A DNA stretch of 64,000 nt, from contig JALDZX010000061.1 in NCBI GenBank assembly GCA_022813865.1, forward strand, positions 1 to 64,000, given 5' to 3'. Both the position numbers and the translations under genes were made by a program. Positions 597-59,275 of the stretch are shown piece after piece. Each line of letters begins with the position of its first letter. Positions within the stretch are counted from its first letter, which is position 1. Under the pieces are notes generated by a model, which saw only the letters and a program-made list of their open reading frames with translations, was not told the origin of the DNA and did no database searches. The DNA is from Xylographa opegraphella. Its lineage: Eukaryota.

Positions 597-2213
597 ATGC
601 CGCTCGAGCTGCACGTCTGGGGCCCCGCATTCACCCTCCCGTCCATCGATCCGGAGTGCCTCGCCGCCGCTGCTTATCTCGCGCGAGCGGTGCCAAGGGG
701 GCGATGGGTGCTGATGGCGGGCGTGGAGGGGGGCGCGAGTGATGCACGTTCGTAAGGCTCCGGTTCCGGTTGCGGTAACTGTGGATTGGGCGGCGGGTGC
801 GGATGGCGCGCTGCTGAGAAGGGAGGGAGGGAGGGAGGGGAGCTCACTGTGCTGATACACGTGCGTGCCTTAGGTCGCCTGCCCGCGCTGCATGATGACG
901 CGGAGGTTGTGTGTGGTTTTCGGGATATAGTCGCGTATCTGAGGACTGTGTCTCATGGGCACTGGGACCTCGACGCGGCGCTGACGCCGGTGCAGAGAGC
1001 GGACTGCGTTGCGTACGTCTACCGGAATCTGCTCCTCTGCCCCATCTCAGAGACTCGCGCCCTTTGAACCTCCTGATCAATAGCGCTGACTCTTATATTT
1101 CCCCCCAGATTCTCCACCTTCCTCGGCGCGCACGCTCTGCCGCTGCTGGATCTATCCCTCTACGTCTCCAGCCAGAACTACGCCACCACCACGCGCCCGG
1201 CCTATGCCTCGCTTCTCGCTTTCCCTTCCTCGTGGGTGATACCCACCCAGCGCCGCGCCGCGGCCAAGCAGCGAAGCGCGCACCTCGGCCTCTCCGCGCT
1301 CGACCTCAGCACCTCCGCTGCGGCCGAGACAGCCAGCGAGCCCTCGGCCAAGGCGTCCCTCTCCATCCCTGAGTCTCTCCGCAAAGCAAGCGCTTCCGTC
1401 TCGGCTGCCATCAAGAGCCCCGAAACGGCGTCTCGCATCCGCTTGGCGGTGCTGACGGAGAAGGTCTTGGATCCGCTCGCCGCTCTGCTCGGCGAGGTTT
1501 CGAATGCGAGCGCGGTTGGGGGGGGGGAGGACTCGTATCTTTTGAGCTCGCACGGACCGTCTAGTCTGGACTGTCTCGCTCTGGGCTACCTCGCGCTGTT
1601 CCTGGTGCCCGCTGTGCCGCATGCGTTCCTCGCGACGACGCTGAAGGAGAAATATCCCAGGTTGGTGGGTTATGTCCGACGGGGTATACAGCAATGCTAT
1701 TGCGGGATCGTGAAAGTGGAAGATGCGCGGCCGGGACTGAAAGGCCCACGAGTCATGAAAAAGCACGAAGACGAAGACGTCGATCTGTCACCCTACAACA
1801 ACATGGCCAATGGCAGCAAAGCCGCCCCTCTACCCTGGCTCGACGCCCCGCCACCGTCTCCTCTCCAAAACATTGGTACTGTCCTCCGAGAAGCTGCTGA
1901 TGGCATACCGGGCCTGGGCCCACTCCTGAAACCAGACCCGCTGCAGCATGCTGCCTCTACTGCAGACTCCTCAGCTCCCAACACCGCATCACTCACTGCG
2001 CCGCCACCCTTACTGTCCACTCTCCTCGCCGTTGGTACCGGCGTCGTCGCTATCGGCGGCGCTGTGCTGTACACTGCCGGCTTTGGCTTAGGTGGAGCGG
2101 AGGATGGAAGGCACAAAGGGACGGCGCAGAAGACCCGTCTGGCGGATATGGGCGAGGCGGGGGAGGTGTTGGCTATGGGCTCGTTTGGGCGCTTGGATTC
2201 AAGCCAGCAGTAG
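597..2213 (+). CDS. SAM37: Mitochondrial SAM complex subunit Sam37/Tom37 (metaxin family), 3 exons
   Basis: ATG 597 reads MPLELHVWGPAFTLPSIDPECLAAAAYL, the typical metaxin/Tom37 N-terminus. Introns at ~748-873 and ~1013-1109. GST-like C-domain motif PSSLDCLALGYLAL and a C-terminal hydrophobic anchor. Confidence 0.88.
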
Positions 2214-3431
2214 CAATTGGCATGCGGGGGTTAGAGTGAGTTAGCATATGGTGAGTGCTGTTTGCACTCTTTGCGTGTTCCTCGGTGAATCGAGCGGGGC
2301 ATTTGGAACTCTATCTAAAACCCCCCTTGGCAGTTTGTCCAGCGAGAATGCACTCAGTTCGGTCCGGAGCAAAAACTCGTGAAGGCTAGCTCCTCCGCTG
2401 CGTGAGCTGCTGCCCATTCACCAAACATTTGCTTCCCCTCGAGGTCGTGTTCGGGCGTTCAAAGTGGCAACCCACATCACTTTGAGGAGTTCCACCCCAC
2501 TCCCTCAACCCCAGAACGAGAAACATGTGACTTTTCCAGGCGGAAAGTCGGCTGTCAGAGACGCTTCTCCCTCTGCTTCACACTTCCGCTGACCCACATG
2601 CTGGGGTTCGGCTGCTGATCATCTAGGCTATCTGCTTTTTGTTTGGGAGAGAGCAATCACGGCCGTGACAGGCTGTGGGGGTTCGTGCTGGGCTTCGGTT
2701 GAGAATTTGCGTGGAGTCTTGCAGTGATGGTGGTGTTTGATGTGACTGTGGTGCTGTGGAGGGACCCGCTGGAGAGCATTACATTTGAGAACACACTTGC
2801 TTACTGCCTTCTTTCGTATCTGTGACGCATGGCTTGAGTCTCTTTTTTCAGAATGCTATCTTTACTGGTCCGATCCAAGCCTTTTTCCTTGACCAATATG
2901 AGGGCACGCCCTGTCCTGTCCTGCTTTTAATGCTTTGAGTTTTGGGCATTAGATACCTCTTTCCTCATCCTCGTGACCTTGGATTTTACCAATGCTCGTC
3001 TTACACCTCAAGGTCATCTCTCATACAGCTGTGCTTGTATTTGCTTTACATTGCATGATATCAGAATGTCCGCCGTGACTCTAAAGTCCGCGGACACGAC
3101 TTCTCGATCAGCTTTGCATGCCTCATGACTCAAGCGGCTTGTCCTCTGGCTATGGTGTTATGGCGGGATTTTCATCACAACCCCCGCCGGCCTTTGACAC
3201 CGTCGATGGGATTAAGAGCGGTTGGCTATGATGCGCCGGTGTGTCAAGCACAGTCTTGCACCGGGTGGGACGTTTGAGAGTCCATCGCCATAGAGAAGGC
3301 GTTCACTGCGTTCCATCCCACAAACGTCCTACTCCGTGATTGATCTTCTTCGACGAGCATGAACGGAGACTTCGATCGTTAACCTTGTCTGACAACAGCA
3401 CCGAACTACTTATTCTGCATACTCTCGAAAG

Positions 3432-5007
3432 ATGGACTGTATTTCCGAAGAACCGCTGGTCCCGTCCGACTCTTTGCTCCATCTTGACACGGGGGTGTCC
3501 TTGATACGTGCTTCGACCCAAGTATTACTTCCCTGTTCAGTAGTCTCTTTTAAGCTGAACCAGTGAAAGTCCAGGCCCCATACCAAGATCTGGCCGATTG
3601 GAGCTCCAGATCTAGTCGATGCTAACGTTGTGGTCAATGATCCGCAATTATTGAAGGCGTTGTGTCTGGACTGGGATACCGCCAAATCTGAAGCTTTCAT
3701 TGCTAAGATTCCACGATACGGGTTCAAAGCCTTGAGCGAAGAGAACATGTCGCCACCCAAGAACACTTGGGCACTTGAAGAAGGAACATCGGAGCTTGTT
3801 GAGCGGTATTTGGCCACCAAACCGCCTGCGGATATCAGAGACAAGAGATACACAGTTCGCTATATTGCATCCTTGGCATGGCGCAAGGTCATCGGCCCCG
3901 AGGAGAGTGTGGTTCTCGTTGACTACCACACGCGTGATATTTTCGCCGTCGTACTGCGTGACTTCATCGAGCTTCCGTCTGTGCTTAGCAGATTCGACAA
4001 GGCTTCCGCTCAACACATAGCCATTGGAAGGAACGTCCGTGTGAGTATCGATCGCCGTTGAATCTCCCCATCTCAAGCATCGCTGAAACGGTTACGTAGA
4101 AGGGCGATCCTGGCCACATGGCCCAGTACGGGTACACGGCCGGTGCGCGGTCAGCACCGAACTTCGCTTGGGCCCGGAACCTGGACAGGAAGTATTCCTA
4201 CGACTTCCTCGCATCCCATAACCACGAGATGATGAGCGCGCACACGCTCGTTTGGAATATCGCGACCAAGAAGGTTCCTGCGTCCGTCATAGCTGGGTTC
4301 CGGGCCGCGTGTGCGGATATGCCCAAGGGAGACTGGAACACGCATGGGGTGTTGACGGAAGGCCGGGTCTCGGTGGATGCGTTCGCCGCTCAGCACGAGA
4401 TCTCCGGGCTGGAACTCGGTCCGTCGAGCGGTGTTTGCGCCGGCGTCTATTCGCGGTGAGTTCTTCATGTGCTGTGGGGCAGTTTTCGTTTGTGGCAAAA
4501 AAAAATTTAACGTTACAGCGCCAGGGCCTGCCACTTCGAGGATGCACCGGCCGACTGTCCGTGGGTGATGTCGCTGACGACTAATTACGACCATCTGGGG
4601 CTGGGTGGATCGTTCTACGCTGCCAAATACGGCATCTTGATCAAGCAGGCGCGCAATACTTTGATCGTGCACAGGGCTACGGAGTGGCATGGCACCACGG
4701 TCCATGATGTTGACTGGTTCGATCGCGCGCTTGTGGTGCGGCATCGGGGCTTCAGTCTGCTCGTGCAGAATAAGCTGCAGTCGACTTGGAAGAAGACGAG
4801 GCTGGGTAGAGTTTGCGAGGATGACGTTGGGGTAGAGGGCGACGCGGAGGGGTTGAGCACCAAGGAGCAGCAGTCAGTGGTCCGTATCCCTTTCAAACTC
4901 TGTCTGACCTTCTGCTGACAAAAAACTGGCCAGGGAAGCGCCCTGCACAAACTACGACCGAAGTCCACAAAGCGGCAGCGAGTCGAGCGCGTCTCGAAGA
5001 CTAAGTA
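3432..5007 (+). CDS. Putative TET/JBP-like 2OG-Fe(II) dioxygenase, ~5 exons
   Basis: ORFs 3630-4061, 4118-4459 and 4565-4918 join through GT-AG introns (4041-4099; 4456-4518/4524; ~4880/4884-4933). The spliced product has GHMAQYGYTAGARSAPNFAWARNL, YSRACHFED (HxE), GGSFYAAKYGILI and WHGTT (distal His). The start at 3432 is tentative. Confidence 0.6.
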
Positions 5008-5625
5008 GCGCTCTACAACTTGCCCCTTTCTCGATGTGGAGGATCGACCTTGATTCGCTCTAAACTGCTTCCCTTTGGTCATTTCAGCTCATCATAGATA
5101 CATTCAATAGCACTCCATCTCTCCGCTCCTGCACCTTCCGCAAAGATAGACCTTTAACTAGCACATTTAAACACTGCATAATACTACTCTCCTCCCTCGC
5201 TCCCAAGCACGCTTCTCGCCCGTTCCAACACCCCCAGCCGCTAGGCAACCGTTCGTCCCGGCCCGCCACGCGGCACTGATTGATTCGTGTATATGGGTAA
5301 GGTAAGGTAGGGTATCAGACATTAGGTAGGTATCTTACATTACCTCAACGCCTAAGCTACCTTAAGCTACGAAGCGCACTAGTAGCTCCGCCGTTAGCAT
5401 CAGGTAAGGTAAGGTACGAGCTCGATATGGCGCTGCTGGTGGTGGCTTAGCTGGAAGATAAGATACCTTCCCTTACCCGTTATATATGAGATGAGGCGAG
5501 TCGAATCCCGTCATGCACGTATCCGCTCCATCTGTCCCACAAGGGGATCAAAACGGACTGTCCTCCGCCTGAGGCACTACCTTATTCACCACGGGGACTC
5601 GCCCCCTACCTTATACAGCAGCGGC

Positions 5626-5657
5626 CTGGTCTGGTCTGGTCTGGTCTGATCTGGTCT
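5626..5657. repeat. (CTGGT)n pentanucleotide microsatellite
   Basis: ctggtctggtctggtctggtctgatctggtct read directly. Confidence 0.85.
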
Positions 5658-5862
5658 ACTCCAGCGCAGACGGCTTTTGGTTATCGGTGCGGGCTGTTTA
5701 TAGTATCTCGTTATGTTTTGTGGCGATTTTTTGAAACGCCGTCAAACGTAAGGGCGGGACCTTGCTCTCGTCGCTCGGCCGCTCGTGGGATGGAGTCGCA
5801 GGTCCGGCGTTCGGGGGGGGGTCGGATGTTCTTGAGGTGGTTTTTTGAGGAGGTCGAGGTTT

Positions 5863-5897
5863 GGATGGGTGGATGGGTGGATGGGTGGGTGGGTGGG
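5863..5897 (+). repeat. G-rich (GGATGGGT/GGGT)n simple repeat with G-quadruplex potential
   Basis: ggatgggtggatgggtggatgggtgggtgggtggg contains six GGG runs. Confidence 0.75.
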
Positions 5898-7570
5898 TCG
5901 GTAGGCGAAGGATCAAACGGTGCTCAACGAATCATCCTGTGGGTGGTGTATACTTCGAATTAACTCGACTTGGCTGTTCGCGGCGCCCCTTCTCTGGTGA
6001 CCACACACAAGTCTTTATCGAAACATCCAAGTCGATTTTATATCATCCTCTTTCTTTTGCTGCAACCTTGCCCCCTTCTCTGGACTTTTATATCACAGAT
6101 ATTTTATATTTTCCTTTCACATCGCTTCGAGTGATTATCGTGGTCTGGTCCTCGACCCCAGCTGGTGCTTCTCGTTCTGCTATATCGGATTTCTCAATCG
6201 AGGAATTCCAAGTTCCGACGCACCTAACGCAACCATGCATCTGGACGACAACAGACGCCGCGACAGTGCTTTCGTACTATAATTTGAAAGCGCACTTTCT
6301 ATTGCTATCCCCGCCCAGGATATCAAGAGAGAAAATCGATGAACATGACGTTTGCCGGTGTTGCGGTCTGGTCGTCGAGACCTCCCCATATGAGGTTTCT
6401 GGACACTGGCCAGCTGGCCTACCGGCTACTTGATTGGTTGCGCATGCTGCGAACTTTTGGACTTCTTCGTCGATTGATTTAGGGTATGACCCGCTTGCTT
6501 AAGTATATCTTGACTACTGTGGATGAACCGTGGTTTTCACTCCTTGGCCGAGTGTGTCATACTGTGTCACAGTAACCTACGGAACCGGACGTTCTATTTA
6601 AATATTGTGGCTGTTGCCACGGTTTGAGTAGGTTTCGTTCCTCTGATTTATGTTAGGTCACATATACTTTTCGGGTTACTATAATTTATAGAGAATAATC
6701 ATTGTAAAAATTAATGTTTCATATCGCCGCGCTTTAACAGCGTCGAAGGAAACTTGGAAGAAATAAAAGACCATTCTTTTACTTCGCCAGGGGGGATATG
6801 GCACACTGTTTTTGGTGCCATTGGTGCCTAAGATCACTTGGCTACTTATCTCACGGACCGGAGGGAGCAATGGTCTTTTCTATGTGGTATACACCCTACT
6901 GCATGCTGTGAACCTTCTATGAACTGCTGGATTCAGATCTCTCACGAACTCGCCTCTTCGCTCTCTGGCGGTACATAATTCAGAGCATACGAGGCAGGGC
7001 TGGAACTATCAAATGACCCGGTGGCCCAGGGCGGTGGAAGTTCAGCATGAGATATGGTAGTACTTGCTTGGTCTCGTCGAAAATGAGTAGAACTTCTAAA
7101 CTTCGATTGGCGCCTGTGATTGGATATGTTACTGGCCTGGAATGCCGAGGATGACCTCGTTTATGCAGCCAAAAATTCCTAGACTCAGAAGCTAGCGGGA
7201 ACGCGGATTTGGTTGAATGATCTTAACGTCTAAGCCAGAACTTGTAGGTGAATGAGTATGATATAAGACAAAGTATTGAAGCTATCCCCATCAGTCGCAA
7301 ACTTTATGCAAGTTTCACCTTGATTGAATTGAAGAATTAGTATGCCATCCGTACAAGGTGCTCGGAGCAGATAGCCATTTGGATTATTATATTGCTTTTA
7401 ATGTACGCGAGTGCAAGATCAAATAAGGTAATCAAGGTACTCTGTAACAAGCATGGCATCAGGGTTCGTACCCTAATCAGCCCTAAGTAAAGATTACGTC
7501 ATTGGAGGATACTATTGTTGGCTGACATCCATACCGCGACGAGCGAAAGCAGCTCTGGAACTACTCAACA

Positions 7571-8763
7571 ATGGCCCACAAAACTGCCGATCAATACTTG
7601 CTGCGCGTTACTGCTGGCCCTGACTATGATCCATCTACACACGCTCTCGTCGCCGTGAATGGCCCGACATCAGTTCCCGTCTTCTCGAATCATTGCACCG
7701 CCAATATTAAAGTACGGGTCCAGAACTACCGCGGTGAGTCGCTTGCGCAGATTCTCCTTGCCGTACTACCCCTGCTGACTTTGCGATTACAGGTCTCCCT
7801 CATGGATCGCCCGCAACATCGGCGTACTTTTCTACAGCCCCTCATACCCACGATCAGTACTCCATTGCTTTTTCTATGATACCCCATACCACTGTTTCCG
7901 GCAACGAGCTCCTCTTCGGAAACGATTTCGATCGTCCGATCAGAGACAGGCTACCACCTGGAACCGAAACAGCCTTCAAGATCGTCAAGTGGGCGATCGA
8001 CCCGGGTCTGGAAGGTGATTTCTACTCCGATACGCCGCATCTGTATGGGCCACTATTGAGCTCTATCAATGTCCTACGAGTGGGACCAAAGGCGACGAAA
8101 CGGGATGGGAAGTACGAAATTCCAGCTCATCTGCATGAAGATGGCATTACGGAAGGAGCTGAGGGCGAGGAGGCGGAATTGCGCAAGGAGAAGCAAATAC
8201 CTGAGGATGCTGCGGCAAGGAAGAAGCACTTCCTCAACGAGAAGCATCGGAAGGACTGGGAGTTTGAGGAGGGAAGAGTTTATCAAGGGGATTTCTTCAA
8301 CCCTTACATCGACTTCAATGGTGCGTATCCACAGTCCGAGTATGTATACAGAGCGGCAATGACCTGACCGAGGCTTTATTATTCTATAGAATTTGCCCTG
8401 AAGCTCCCTGGTTTCTCGTTGAGCGTGCTCGGTTATATTGATGCGAAGCAAGACAATCTACGGTAAGCTACCCCTTTCTTAATGTTTCGTTGTTGGGAAG
8501 GAAGATTAGATATTTTGGGATTTTGTGGCTTACTGGATATCACCTGCGGCGCTCGCTGATACAGACGGTCCCATGAGTTTAGATATGTGATGAAGAACAA
8601 GAGCACAGGCGACGTGTTCTTCGTCGTCGTTTTTACATTGGTACCAAAAGAGGACGCGGAGAACGAAAGCGCAAGCATCACTGCCGCGGCCAGTGACGAG
8701 GTGAAGCAGCAGGACGGCGAGAAGAAGGATGAATATGAGCCTAAGGACGATGACTTAGATTAG
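7571..8763 (+). CDS. DUF1769 (UPF0590) family protein, 4 exons
   Basis: YLLRVTAGPDYDP...VRVQNYRG, LLFGNDFDRPIRDRLPPG, IDPGLEGDFYSDTPHLYGPLLSS and DFFNPYIDFN. The last exon, ...ELRYVMKNKSTGDVFFVVVFTLV..., ends at TAG 8761-8763. Confidence 0.85.
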
Positions 8764-12911: not shown

Positions 12912-14892
12912 TCATCTCCCATATCCTATCATCCTCCCCACCACTCCTCTCACACCGTCCCATATCGTCTCCCTCCTCCTCAACCCTACTCCCACAGCGC
13001 CTACCCCGGCCACCATACCCACCCCCAGAACCACCCCTCTCAGCAGCGTGCCCTGCCACTCGCTCCTCTCCTTCACGGCGCTGTAGCGCTGATTCCCAAA
13101 GCTCACCCGGCTATACTGCGTGCTCCAGCCCAGGCGCGGGAAGTACTTGTACAGGAACTCCTCGACGTGCTTGCGGAACAGGTACAGCGGCGAGGTGACG
13201 CTCGAGCGCATCTCAAGATAGTTGTGCAGCGCGAGGTCGTTGATGGTGTGCGCGTCCGGGGTGCGGTAGGCGGTGTAGGCCGCTAGCGCGGTGGCGAGGT
13301 TGGAGGACGGGCCGATCTTGGAGACGGGTTGCGCAGGCGTAGAGGAGAGGGAGGGCGAGGGCATGGGAGGCGGGGTCCCCGTGGCGGAGTCCGTGTCGGT
13401 GGAGAACGAGGGCTGCGGCGATGGAGGTGGGGGAGCTGCAGGCGCTCGGTAGACGCCGTGCGTGTCTAGGAAGTCGAATAGCACGCGCACGTCCTCCAGG
13501 CCGGCGTTCATGCCTTGCCCGTAGAAGGGCACCATCGCGTGCGCGGCGTCGCCGACGATGACTGCGCTGCTGCCGTAGTGGTACGGCGTGCACTTGATGC
13601 TGATGAGCGGTAGGTGCGGGTTGTCGGAGAACTGGGCGACCAGGTCCGAGGTCGTGATGAGGTCGGGGCACAGGCCTGGGAAGTTCTCGTCGAAGAAGGG
13701 CGGGAGCGAGGTCTCGGGCGAGGCGGATAGAGAGGCGAAGGTGGCGGAGGGTGCGAATAGCGTGCATGTGAAGGAGCGGTCGAGCGACGGGATTGCGATG
13801 AACATGAAGGACGTGCCAGGCCAGATGTGTAAATGGTTGGGGGAGATGGCGAATGAATTGTCGGCGGGGCGTGGTGGGATGTGGAACTCGCACCAGAGCG
13901 TGTCGATGTACTCTTGCTGGTAGTTGACGCGGGCGAATTTCATGAGGTGGTAGCGCGCGGCGGAGTGGGCGCCGTCCGCACCGATGAGGAGGTCGAAGTG
14001 GACTTCCTTCTCGGGGTTACGCTGGTGCTCGGCTGGAGAGGCGGAGGGCTGTGTGGGGTTTTGGGCGTGGTCGGTCTTGGAAGCGTGTGCGCGGTGCTCG
14101 AACCAGGCGGTGTTATGGTTGAAGTCCGCGCCGGTGAGCTTGTGGTTGAAGAAGAAGGTGACGCTGGGCATCGCTTCGAGGGAGTCAAGGAGGCGTTTAT
14201 TGAGCCCCGCACGGTCGACAGCATGGATCGACTGTAATAAGGGGTTAGGAAGAGAATTCGGAGTGAAGGAGTAAACGTACTCGGCCATGGACGTCGTAGT
14301 ATTGGGAGTCTTGGTAGAGCTCGCCAAGCTTGCTGCGGCCGTGGATCATACGGGCGTGCATGGGGATTGTCTCTTTGAGTATATCGTCGACGAGGGAGGG
14401 GACTCCAGCATGTCTCATAGAGTTGATGCCACGCTCTGAGAGGGCGAGGTTGATGGACTTGGTGAAATTCAGGGGGGTCGTGGAGGGATCTCGCAGATCT
14501 AGTGTTCGTCTCTGGATTCAGCACACTCTTCTTGAACGAAAAGATTTTCAAAGTAATTTGGAAAAATCTCGGCCAGGAGAGCCATGTCCCAGTTCTTTAT
14601 AGAGCTTCGGCCTGGTAGATATCAAGGAAGATTCGAAACGATATAACGCTAACGTAGTACATGACCCATCAAAGAAACAAGAATATATGAACGGGTACCC
14701 ATTCGACCTCGGAATTTCCATAAACAGAGAATCTAAGCAATCGACAAGGGAAAAGAAATGCTGTAGCATACCTCCCCTGAGCTCATATACCTCGACATCG
14801 TCGCCTCGAACAGCCGCATAGAGGGCTGCAAGAGCTCCAACCGGGCCTGCACCGATTACAACAACTTTCCGCGGGTTAGTATTCTCAGTCAT
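12912..14892 (-). CDS. BNA4: Kynurenine 3-monooxygenase (FAD-dependent), 3 exons
   Basis: [37 protein letters not shown] and [22 protein letters not shown], plus a C-terminal TM anchor. Introns at 14499-14771 and ~14231-14280. Confidence 0.95.
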
Positions 14893-55048: not shown

Positions 55049-55904
55049 ATGAACTCTGTTGCTGCTCCTTGTGGATTTCTTGCCTTGCCTGGTGTAAGTT
55101 TTGAGAAATTGATCTTCAAACCGTCAGCCCAATGCCTAATCCCTTCAGGAACTTCGGAACAAAATATACAAACTGGTCTTCGAGTTTTGTCATTACGAAA
55201 TCAAGCGACCCAGACAGGGTAAAGGCCTTACTCATACAATCTACCGAATGGATCGCCCCGGATCAGTGCTCTGGTACGAGGGCCGAAAGATTTACTCACC
55301 ACTTACCAGCATCAGTTTCATATGCCGTGACGAGATTGCGGTCAACCTGCTTCGAACGTGCCGCAAGATACACGACGAAGCGCTATCACTTTGCTATGCG
55401 TCTGCATCCTTCGGGTTCTGGAGTAGACGGCTCCTGGAGAAGTTTCTTTCCACAATCAATCCCATAGCAAAGACATCGATCGAGAGACTCCTTATTCAGC
55501 ATGAGACCTATGGCGATCCTTACCATACGGAGGATGTTCGTTGGAAGTCGGTTCATGATCTTAAATGGGAAACTTGCTGTGAGATGGTCAGCCAAGAGCT
55601 TGTGGGTCTTCGTAACCTCACGATACTATTAAAAATCAACGATCGGCCTCTAAAGCTGAACTTGACCGCGGACTGGGCACAACCTTTGTTGACATTTCAC
55701 GGTCTAGGTCTCAAGCATTTCAGGTTGGAAATATTAGCAAACGGTATCGATTCACACACCACTCCTAGACTAAGCAGTTGTGCTCGATTTCTCGAAAGGG
55801 CCATTCTTGGTGCTGAGTACAAAGAGGAAGACAGACACAGAGTCCGGAACTTTTGGTCCCAGCCTCTCCCGAAGGCAATCAGATGCTTAGTCATCAAATA
55901 TTAG
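55049..55904 (+). CDS. F-box-like fungal hypothetical protein (LPxExRxxIY ... LLxTCRxxxxE family), 2 exons
   Basis: MNSVAAPCGFLALPG, then intron 55094-55148, then ELRNKIYKLVF in frame with ORF 55248-55904 (LLRTCRKIHDEALSLCYASASF). Confidence 0.8.
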
Positions 55905-56171: not shown

Positions 56172-57761
56172 CTATAGTAACAAACTGATCGGCGCAGATG
56201 GCAGAAGGTTCACGAATGCTGGCGGGTTCTGTACTGTATCCGGAGCTGTCCACATTATTCCAAACTCTCCACCGAAGTATAGTGTTGTCCACCAAAATTT
56301 CTCCACCCCAGGCTTATCCTGGCCAAGCATTACTTGACAACAAAGACCTTGTGGGGTGGTCATCAAGTAGCCGTCTGTCCAGAGCTGCCCTTCATTTACA
56401 GCGACATACTTAGCACTGAACATAATGCTGGTGAGATTCTTGAAAAGGCAACTTCGTTGCAGGATTCCTGAAACCCACTGGGTAAGTCTCTCATTTAGCC
56501 TACACCGATCCACACTGGCCACAACTTTGACACTTCGGATAGCGCTGATCTGATCTGGTGACCGAGTCCTCAAGAAGTCCAGTAAGTCGCTCTCAGTAAA
56601 CTCAAAGTTATTGAGACGATAAGGCATGAGTCGCGCATCCTCATAGACCATACGGCACGTTCTGAGCGAGGCTAGGCTTAAGGTCGATTTATTGCGAGCA
56701 AGGTCATGGCATTTACCACCACATTCATATGTGGGATATTTGTTGTTCGCCCTCTGACAAATGCGGTGATGGAGATCATCGACCGGCCAATATCCGTGAT
56801 GGAAATTTGCGCGCTCGGAGACGAGTCCTAGTTCTGCTGCCTGTAAATGGAACCTCAAGCTTTCAACCAAAAGTCCATTCATTGACTCCATGTGGAATGA
56901 ATTGGTCCTGCCGTTTAAGATTTTTACGTGGATGTGATATACGCCGAATATGTTTTGATAAATCTTATCACGAACCTCTCGAGGCATATCCATGAAATTG
57001 ATAGAGATTCGTTCTTCGGAAGGCTTAGCTGACACGATCGAAGGTTCTCCACAATCGAGACCAACACTGAGGTTGGTTTGGGCTCCTTTTTTAAGCTGAC
57101 AACGATGTTAGACAACCTTTTGTTCCGGGGGCAAGCACGTACATATTCAATCTCGGCGTTGGCTTTAGACACACTCTCCCGAGCGATAATTATAGCCTCT
57201 ATTGCAGAAGTTTTCTGCTATTGACAAGGATGTTAGTTAAACTTATAGCTCAAGGAGTAAGTACGTACAAGGTCAAGTTTGATACAGGCTTCAGTCACTT
57301 TGATCCTGGCGGTATCGATGTGAGTTCTGACATTCAGTCTTTGTGCAGGAGTAAAAGGGATCTGACGGTTATGTTAGATATCTTGTCACTTCAGGGTTAC
57401 TTACGTACCGATTCAAGCTTGGCCCTGGCCTTGATCAGACGCTCGATGGCAGCAGTCAGGTGGTTATTGATGTTGTCCTCTTCTGCAGGAGCCATATGAA
57501 GCTAACGACCATGTTAGATAGCCCTGTATTGCAAGGTAAACTACGTACAACGTCAGGCTCAGCAGTGGCATCGGTCAGATTATCCATGACGGACATTATT
57601 GGCGTCGTTACTGCTCGTCGTTGGGCGAGCGTAGGATTACTCAAGGTGCGTAAGTTGCGTAAGTTGCGCAAGGTCTTAGCATTATAGAGAGGACAAAAAT
57701 TATCAACACCAAGTTTCGCTTTTCTAGACCTACCTAGCGTCGTTCGCTTGGTGTGTATCAT
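56172..57761 (-). CDS. F-box-like hypothetical protein with four exon-encoded helical repeats at its N-terminus
   Basis: Phase-0 introns 57502-57548, 57362-57408, 57218-57268 and 57096-57142 splice in frame to ORF 56172-57035 (FMDMPREVRDKIY; SLRTCRMVYEDARLMPYRLNNFEF). The start and the extreme C-terminus are uncertain. Confidence 0.75.
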
Positions 57762-58225
57762 ATCACGCTTGGGGGGCAATTTCCGCACTTTGGGAAGTTT
57801 AGTATGACACACTGACAGAGCTGGAAATCTAGTAAACCTTCGCAAATCGAATAGCTTTGCTGCCACTACTTCTTCCTAAGTTCAATTGACACAGTCTCTA
57901 AGCTTACCGATCAAGCACTGCATTCAGGAATTCGATAGCTGAAACTACACATCTTCCTCCTATTCTGTCAGTTGAATCCCACTTGAGGCCCAAACAAAGA
58001 CCTGATCCAGTGTGAAGCACAGATTTCTCAGTCTTCCATCCTGAAAAGCACTTATTCAACCCCCTGGTGTCTTTTTGTGTGCTTGTCTTCCCCACTCATA
58101 AAGCACATTCGTTCATACAACTACTTTCTGTGTCTTCTGATCCAGAAATTACCATACCAAGGCTTTCAACGACATTCCGCACACCTTAATCTACTATGTT
58201 ACCTGTATTTGCACTCGAGATCATC

Positions 58226-59275
58226 ATGTCAACTAAATCCGACGCGTCTTGCCTCCAGTTTTATGACTCGGATGTAAAGATGCTATCAAACTCGGAACAA
58301 TTCTCAGAGAGCCAATCTGGGGAGCATAAGCAATCTGGGGAGCATAAGCAATCTGGGGAGCATGAGCAATCTGGGGAGCATAACCAATTCGAAGACGCCA
58401 AAGAGCCTTCAAGCGATCCAGAAGAGTCGGTGACTACTATACCAGGCCTCTTCAGCCTTCCTCTGGAGATCCGGCTTCAAATCTACCTCCTCGTCGTTGG
58501 CAACCTCACAATCATACTGCTCCCCAACAAACCCATGGTCAAATTCGCGCCCAGGCTCTTTAAGTTTTACCCCAACTGGCCTCACACGTCCCTTACGCAC
58601 CGGCTCGCCCACGCTACACGTTACACGGCTACTGCCATCAGCGCGGAGCCATTTTGCCTCAGTAAGCGCGACAAACGACCCACGACCTCCGCTATGCGCT
58701 GCTTCCTCTCCTACCGCACCCCCCCGCACCTCTCCCTCCTCCTCTCTTTCTCCCTCCTCACCACATGCCGCCAACTCTACGCCGAAACGGTCTCGATCCT
58801 TTACAGCACCGCCACCTTCCGCGTGCAAATCCAGTACCTCTTCAACTTCCTAAAGAACCGCACTACCGCCCAGCTGCACCAGCTGCGCCGCCTCGCTATC
58901 GGGGGCGCCCTTCGCAGCAAGCTGGAGGCGCGCACGTTCCGGCACGTCATGGTCGCCGCGGCGTGGGCGTGTCCCCCGATCCAGAATTTGCACGTGGAGT
59001 TGGGGTTGGGGGAGGATCTGTGGAGACTCACGTGCGTGAAGGGGGCCAATATCGGGTGGCTGCAGGGGGTGAGGGCTTGGGGTGGAAGGGGCCTGCAAGA
59101 GGGGAAGGTGAGGTTACGGCCGGGGGACGGGGTGAAGGTCGGTGAGGGGGCTAAGAAGGGGATGGTGACGCTGGCGGGGTTGTTGGAGGCAGAGTTGCTG
59201 GCGGTGGCGGCGGTGCCGGTGGCTGTTGCGGCTGAGGAAAAAGAGGAAGACTTGGTCAAGGAGGGAGGAGCATGA
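58226..59275 (+). CDS. F-box-like fungal hypothetical protein (same family)
   Basis: LFSLPLEIRLQIYLLVVG and LLTTCRQLYAETVSILYSTATF motifs; QSGEHK repeats near the N-terminus. Confidence 0.8.
   Translation: MSTKSDASCLQFYDSDVKMLSNSEQFSESQSGEHKQSGEHKQSGEHEQSGEHNQFEDAKEPSSDPEESVTTIPGLFSLPLEIRLQIYLLVVGNLTIILLPNKPMVKFAPRLFKFYPNWPHTSLTHRLAHATRYTATAISAEPFCLSKRDKRPTTSAMRCFLSYRTPPHLSLLLSFSLLTTCRQLYAETVSILYSTATFRVQIQYLFNFLKNRTTAQLHQLRRLAIGGALRSKLEARTFRHVMVAAAWACPPIQNLHVELGLGEDLWRLTCVKGANIGWLQGVRAWGGRGLQEGKVRLRPGDGVKVGEGAKKGMVTLAGLLEAELLAVAAVPVAVAAEEKEEDLVKEGGA
58313..58389 (+). repeat. 18-bp coding tandem repeat (CAATCTGGGGAGCATAAG) x4
   Basis: Encodes QSGEHK QSGEHK QSGEHE QSGEHN. Confidence 0.9.

Follow-up and report, generated by a model that had tools for sequence, protein, structure and literature searches.

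The forward strand of a 64,000-nucleotide (nt) stretch of DNA from the lichen-forming ascomycete Xylographa opegraphella (assembly GCA_022813865.1, contig JALDZX010000061.1, positions 1 to 64,000; hereafter the window) carries a five-exon gene at positions 3432–5008. Splicing gives a 1347-nt coding sequence (CDS) and a 448-residue product, which matches the NCBI entry hypothetical protein MMC26_006521 of X. opegraphella (also called P0001) in every letter. With high confidence, this protein is a TET/JBP-superfamily dioxygenase of the PE type, a type defined among transposon-borne fungal genes. That the gene is maintained by the host is held with moderate confidence, and that its substrate is specifically 5-methylcytosine (5mC) with moderate to low confidence. 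The probability is put at about 0.6 that this is a nuclear, four-intron, host-resident gene, with one copy in the window, for a PE-type non-haem Fe(II) TET/JBP dioxygenase that likely acts on 5mC.

Predicted fold, metal ligands and the PE type

The protein was folded with AlphaFold2 from a 69-row alignment, and the model was compared with the PDB and BFVD by Foldseek. The model has a mean predicted local distance difference test score (pLDDT) of 84.7 and a predicted template modelling score (pTM) of 0.81; the core, residues 50 to 405 approximately, exceeds 90 at most positions, and the two tails are disordered. Among the PDB matches listed, ranks 1–26 are all CcTET, CMD1, NgTET1 or human TET2 (E 6.4e-8 to 6.7e-5), with best E-values of 6.4e-8 for CcTET, 6.1e-6 for CMD1, and 1.4e-5 for both NgTET1 and human TET2. 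The first match outside this group is OsALKBH1 (1.3e-4), and PHD2, SptF, KanJ and AlkB are found at 5e-4 to 2e-3 (SptF and KanJ near 8e-4), aligned over about 260 columns. The TET-type alignments span 340–460 columns, those with CcTET 366–406, or roughly the length of the whole folded core, and the E-values of AlkB, PHD and small-molecule oxygenases are three to four orders of magnitude weaker. An earlier note on this DNA, which had proposed a TET/JBP-clade enzyme, named as refuting outcomes a small-molecule 2-oxoglutarate (2OG) oxygenase as the closest structure, or the lack of a double-stranded beta-helix (DSBH); the comparison came out the opposite way.

The top five matches in BFVD have E-values of 7.2e-11 to 2.9e-9; two are named as JBP1/TET oxygenase domain proteins (phage) and three are unnamed, and the template modelling (TM) scores of the BFVD matches reach 0.68 on target length. 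As a robustness control, a basidiomycete member of the family from Amylocystis lapponica (P0027, 26–29% identical) was also folded (pLDDT 88.4), and its listed ranks 1–21 were again occupied by CcTET, CMD1, TET2 and NgTET1.

Relatives were collected by a phmmer search of MMC26_006521 against 1.84 billion representative proteins. This returned 338 relatives at E ≤ 1e-3, 150 at E ≤ 1e-10 and 14 at E ≤ 1e-30, so the gene is not a chance product. The family alignment (n = 69) consists of MMC26_006521, the orthologue from X. bjoerkii, and 67 proteins picked by length and coverage from the 150 representatives listed. The HxE...H metal triad described in the earlier note is present as H309, E311 and H361, which are conserved in 67, 64 and 68 of the 69 sequences, with Asp replacing E311 in three. 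In the model, the positions of the triad relative to the predicted strands (297–302, 319–327, 336–338, 343–345, 351–356, 361–363 and 379–385) appear to fit a DSBH. Two further residues, G333 and F336, are kept in all 69 sequences, and D190, G192, G198, G202 and Y304 occupy near-invariant columns. R187 and R204 are each found in 58 of 69, and the position of R306 holds Arg in 59 and Lys in seven. The peptides quoted previously (ACHFED; GGSFYAAKYGILIKQARNTLIVH..EWHGTT; RHRGFS) and the basic tail were all found in the 448-residue protein.

Three types of fungal transposon-borne TET/JBP genes were defined by Kojima (2025; PMC12730594). The hallmark of the PE type is HxE replacing HxD; its members are described as 'very distantly related' to known TETs (HHpred E 1.4–19), and are structurally like CMD1, NgTET and CcTET (AlphaFold DB similarity <1e-5). 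The glutamate in place of the usual aspartate, singled out in the earlier note, is thus present as E311 but is no oddity of this gene, because HxE is the published mark of the PE type and 64 of 69 relatives carry Glu; as far as the aligned sequences go, it is the family norm. The protein also has, judged by eye, the same order of motifs as the PE domains of Helitron-1_MoIm and Helitron-1_AsIm (Table S1 of PMC12730594): R-x-ED-x-G...GYSAG-x-RS...F-x-W-x-RN; APPSG...NY-x-R-x-x-H-x-E; and GG-x-F...YGI...N...HGT. An Agaricales member, from Lentinula (P0140), and the Polyporales member from Amylocystis (P0027) belong to the same HMMER family. The likeness to the PE type comprises HxE, the motif order seen by eye, and a protein that is invisible to sequence profiles yet TET-like in structure.

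The best structural neighbour, CcTET of Coprinopsis cinerea (PDB 7VPN, 7W5P, 8JKK), is also fungal and consists of a stand-alone catalytic domain, similar in size (347–383 residues resolved); its sequence identity to this protein is about 10%. It is an AG-type enzyme, HxD and Kyakuja-associated, whereas the Xylographa protein is HxE. NgTET1 (4LT5, 5CG8/9), human TET2 (4NM6 and others) and CMD1 of Chlamydomonas (7CY4-8) belong to the same fold class (E 6e-6 to 7e-5), the TM score reaching 0.58 on the length of NgTET1; all three are HxD, and they have no sequence-level similarity to this protein. The Xylographa protein is not known to have a Cys-rich domain of the kind found in TET2.

Relatives and probable residence in the host genome

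Organism names were obtained for six of the relatives through word-index homology searches, which returned few proteins (4, 5 and 11). Named homologues, one each, come from X. bjoerkii (82% identity), X. pallens (84%, from an N-terminally truncated model) and Trapelia coarctata (42%). In a 60-row tree, the X. opegraphella, X. bjoerkii, X. pallens and Trapelia coarctata proteins, together with four more, form an 8-row clade (Shimodaira–Hasegawa-like approximate likelihood ratio test, SH-aLRT, 97), and the two named basidiomycete rows sit in the opposite half of the tree. All three metal ligands are present in every member of the 8-row clade.

Published PE-type genes are carried by Helitron and IS3EU elements of Pezizales, and by Zisupton, EnSpm and Plavaka elements of Agaricales, and the reported host range is Pezizomycetes or Agaricales (PMC12730594). 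Xylographa and Trapelia are Lecanoromycetes (Ostropomycetidae), with Xylographa placed in Baeomycetales, and the ascomycete host proposed in the earlier note is borne out by this. The word Lecanoromycetes has 0 occurrences in PMC12730594, and literature searches on TET/JBP-like dioxygenases in lichen-forming fungi or Lecanoromycetes found no matching paper. The gene differs from the PE-type genes of that paper in lying outside a recognisable transposon, as one copy in the window and with four introns; the protein falls in a separate, well-supported clade with Trapelia, and several family-conserved residues are altered.

All PE-type genes described so far are transposon cargo (PMC12730594), and this one might be a stranded passenger: the still intact cargo of a PE-type TET transposon (a Helitron, for example) that has lost its ends and transposase to decay. 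It would do nothing for the host, and its relatives would reflect old or repeated insertions. The 2.5 kb of featureless DNA 3′ of the gene would suit such a history. Nevertheless, this explanation is considered unlikely. Four introns interrupt an intact reading frame, and the metal ligands are kept throughout the 8-row clade. The core is also better conserved between species than the tails: X. opegraphella and X. bjoerkii are 85% identical in the folded core, 60% in the N-terminal tail and 44% in the C-terminal tail, and 29 of 38 family-conserved columns are retained in the Xylographa comparison. Only one named protein was found per lichen genome, whereas transposon-borne TETs are typically multi-copy, as with the 46 AG-type genes in Coprinopsis cited in PMC12730594.

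The flanking DNA gives no sign of a transposon either, in agreement with the earlier statement that no intact transposase lies nearby. None of the 83 open reading frames (ORFs) of at least 130 codons in the window matched a transposase, integrase or Helitron Rep/helicase family of Pfam. A tblastn search within the window found no second copy of the gene, and self-BLAST of positions 2200–7600 against the window gave nothing off the diagonal. A search for transposon ends, including terminal inverted repeats (TIRs), near the gene found just five short imperfect inverted pairs (14–28 nt, 71–93% complementary), none of which convincingly brackets it. The GC content at third codon positions (GC3) is 0.68, within the 0.41–0.82 range of 11 neighbouring ORFs. 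The TpA/ApT index of repeat-induced point mutation (RIP) is 0.65 for the gene, below the 0.74 of the window, and the RIP indices are unremarkable. The intact frame, the constraint on the core, GC3, the single copy in the window and the relatives favour, without proving, a functional host-resident gene. Such a gene may have been domesticated or may be ancestrally free-standing, and would have been kept by Trapelia and by at least three species of Xylographa.

Some of the relatives are of interest in themselves. A Chromo domain (5e-7) occurs in one of the 69 aligned proteins, and a search of 19 relatives for fused domains found a Myb-like N-terminal segment in a 589-residue protein (P0009, residues 16–45), below threshold at E 0.047. 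Both might be family members fused to domains that target chromatin or DNA, but this is too slight a basis for argument. Two fragments found in ENA only (P0004 and P0155), both on a contig of 8244 bp, match separate parts of the protein at 75% and 66% identity, respectively, and the C-terminus of P0004 contains intron read-through. The pair resembles a single orthologue, split by introns, that a gene finder of prokaryotic style annotated as two proteins.

Gene model and neighbourhood

The gene was located by reading positions 2800–5800 and their stop-to-stop frames, and the NCBI protein was retrieved with the translation of exon 4 as query. A gene of four to five exons at 3432–5007 had been proposed in the earlier note. 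Five were found (Table 1), and the proposed end was one base short of the stop codon.

Table 1. Exons of the PE-type dioxygenase gene and its flanking features, in window coordinates.
Feature	Positions	Strand	Description
Exon 1	3432..3521	+	Residues 1–30; start ATG 3432–3434; splice model reproduces MMC26_006521
Exon 2	3570..4040	+	Residues 31–187; N-terminal part of catalytic domain; pLDDT about 97 from residue 50
Exon 3	4100..4455	+	Residues 188–305 and 2 nt of codon 306; bears the D190-x-G192...G198-x-x-x-G202-x-R204 motif and Y304
Exon 4	4525..4879	+	Third nt of codon 306 through residue 424; DSBH core with metal triad
Exon 5	4934..5008	+	Residues 425–448; Lys/Arg-rich basic tail; stop TAG 5006–5008
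Tom37/SAM37-type gene, upstream neighbour	1077..2213	+	Pfam Tom37 2.4e-12, GST_C_6 7.5e-7
Duc1 (DUF1769) gene, downstream neighbour	7526..8367	+	Pfam Duc1 1.2e-49; likely start near 7571
2.5-kb spacer	5009..7525	.	No recognisable gene, RNA or repeat by Pfam, tRNA, Rfam and self-similarity scans

Introns 2 to 4 have good fungal signals, with donors GTGAGT, GTGAGT and GTCCGT and YAG acceptors (TAG for intron 2, 4041–4099). Intron 1 (3522–3569, 48 nt) is non-canonical, with a GTATTA donor and an AAG acceptor. Exon 1 is the least secure part of the gene model, because this intron bounds a disordered, little-conserved N-terminus: residues 1–41 have a pLDDT below 50 in the AlphaFold2 model and are weakly conserved in the Trapelia homologue. 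Residues 409–448, the disordered C-terminal tail, are also below 50. The basic stretch of this tail is partly conserved in the X. pallens protein, with an identity there of 55% compared with 90% in the core.

The HFE motif had been thought to be created by an exon junction. This is not so: the codons for H309 (4532–4534), E311 (4538–4540) and H361 (4688–4690) all fall entirely within exon 4. What depends on the 4455|4525 junction is the distance between motif residues, Y304-x-R306-x-x-H309-x-E311, identical to the family consensus NYxRxxHxE. Intron 3 ends (4512–4525) with two in-frame acceptors 6 nt apart, giving an exon start at 4519 or 4525. Use of the upstream one would add Ala-Arg shortly before the metal-binding His and disrupt the Y-x-R-x-x-H-x-E spacing. 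Comparison with the family supports the annotated junction, since only the downstream acceptor yields the family spacing. A stop-free frame of 240 codons on the opposite strand (4151–4873) runs across exons 3 and 4 without a Pfam match; it probably results from the GC richness of the coding strand.

The flanking genes, previously named SAM37 and DUF1769, were recovered as Pfam Tom37 and Duc1 matches. In the spacer (5009–7525), the ORFs at 5490–5960 and 5849–6433 gave no Pfam match, and tRNA and Rfam scans gave none. A patch of short simple repeats at 5260–5900, just downstream of the gene and without a match elsewhere in the window, contains GGTAAGGTAAGGTA twice (5296 and 5403). It also contains a 28-nt imperfect inverted pair (5325–5352 / 5444–5471), TGGTC runs near 5629–5655, and GGATGGGTG runs near 5864–5895.

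Other genes of the window encode Mitofissin, pyruvate kinase, an FAD monooxygenase, a methionine aminopeptidase-type M24 protein, Eisosome1, a G-patch protein, Utp13, UBP, WD40 and RING proteins, a NatB subunit, adenylate kinase, GFA, and three DUF7730 proteins. The DUF7730 ORFs (55140–55901 on the plus strand, 56175–57107 on the minus strand and 58190–59272 on the plus strand; Pfam E 4e-12 to 3e-10) form a small local paralogue cluster. The FAD-binding monooxygenase ORF (12915–14345, minus strand) has a GC3 of 0.82, far above the 0.41–0.70 of its neighbours. The ORF scans of the window revealed no glycosyltransferase or other modification gene adjoining the dioxygenase gene, and no biosynthetic gene cluster around it.

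Substrate and biological meaning

Several points weigh against a host-resident PE-type enzyme acting on 5mC. At the level of sequence, Pfam searches at E ≤ 10 with MMC26_006521 and a further protein (P0003) returned 0 families, including neither PF12851 (Tet_JBP) nor PF20515, and searches with the three large exons singly gave no useful match. HMMER searches of the PDB sequences, with the single protein and with the 69-row profile, found no TET, just chance matches at E ≥ 0.4. PF20515 (2OG-FeII_Oxy_6, the 'Tet-like 2OG-Fe(II) oxygenase superfamily') is touched by just two of the 69 relatives, below threshold, with relative P0032 scoring 13.5 bits against a cut-off of 27. The structural similarity to TETs is moderate (TM 0.34–0.58, root-mean-square deviation about 9–11 Å): the protein belongs to a divergent branch of this fold and is no close copy. 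Xylographa departs from columns of the wider family at R327 (to Y), W355 (to H) and R389 (to K). The first exon depends on a non-canonical intron, and the ORF-based Pfam scan would overlook a heavily decayed or intron-rich transposase. According to PMC12730594, no PE-type enzyme has been assayed so far, and substrate and product are here inferred entirely.

The neighbours of the protein in the ESM Atlas are clusters of basidiomycete hypothetical proteins, in which 15% of members carry PF20515 and 13% carry PF12851. Because PF12851 gives no sequence match, membership in TET/JBP depends on structure and on homology to the PE type. The assignment made in the earlier note is supported by the nearest structures, all of which are TET-type, and corrected in that PF12851 itself does not match.

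A 2OG oxygenase forms its ferryl species through decarboxylation of 2OG. In the proposed mechanism, Fe(II) would be bound by H309, E311 and H361, and oxidative decarboxylation of 2OG would give an Fe(IV)-oxo species able to hydroxylate the methyl group on a flipped-out base. The likeliest substrate would be 5mC in DNA, since 5mC-DNA is acted on by each of the four closest solved enzymes; it would be converted to 5-hydroxymethylcytosine (5hmC) and further, as by CcTET, NgTET1 and TET2. The disordered, basic C-terminal tail (residues 425–448) may serve nuclear import.

A TET fold could also support other chemistry, such as thymine hydroxylation (JBP-like), demethylation of N6-methyladenine (6mA), action on RNA bases, or use of a co-substrate other than 2OG, as in CMD1. 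CMD1, which uses vitamin C and makes 5-glyceryl-methylcytosine (5gmC), is among the best structural matches (6e-6). CcTET, the best match, also acts on 6mA, with G331 and D337 giving 5mC/6mA specificity; and activities other than 5mC oxidation are not excluded for the PE type (all PMC12730594). Two Arg residues of the family are mostly lost in the Xylographa–Trapelia clade. R327 occurs in 55 of 69 relatives but in only one of the eight members of this clade, and R389 in 47 of 69; they are Tyr and Lys here and variable within the lichen clade. R380 is kept across the clade in an R-G-(F/M)-S motif on the last strand, which reads H-R-G in most members. Judged from sequence only, the basic candidates for an anchor of the 2OG C5-carboxylate are R204, R306 and the clade-specific R380. 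A shifted co-substrate or substrate pocket is possible, because R327 and R389 are replaced and R380 is kept in the lichen clade. Nevertheless, no observation speaks positively for any given alternative substrate, no modification gene adjoins the gene in the window, and the ranking of folds does not separate the substrate options, so a chemistry other than 5mC oxidation is regarded as quite unlikely.

A more far-reaching version, in which the Lecanoromycete lichen fungi domesticated a transposon-derived PE-type TET, is judged more improbable still. It would have been inherited vertically since before the Xylographa–Trapelia split, with a remodelled pocket (R327 and R389 mostly lost, the Arg of R-G-(F/M)-S gained) and a host epigenetic function that might differ from canonical 5mC oxidation, e.g., CMD1-like, or directed at 6mA or T. 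Least credible is a 2OG oxygenase acting on a small molecule or protein and resembling TETs through the shared beta-helix only: the missing Tet_JBP sequence match, the modest TM scores and the presence of PHD2, SptF, KanJ and PolD in the structural match lists at about 1e-3 would allow it, but the lead of the TET-type enzymes in E-value and aligned length, repeated in two libraries and with two divergent family members, and the lack of a biosynthetic gene cluster around the gene make it very improbable.

As a PE-type TET/JBP enzyme, MMC26_006521 extends the known range of this branch to the Lecanoromycetes, and is an apparently free-standing, conserved representative, with one copy in the window, in a fungal class without an earlier report of the branch. 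All PE-type genes described to date are multi-copy transposon cargo (PMC12730594), making genetics and the attribution of function hard. An intact, host-resident member with orthologues offers a cleaner entry to the function of the branch, and to the effect of Glu for Asp on its chemistry. The gene could show whether ascomycetes outside the Pezizomycetes actively oxidise DNA methylation and, if synteny confirms its residence, it would exemplify the co-option by a host of an enzyme used by transposons for counter-silencing.

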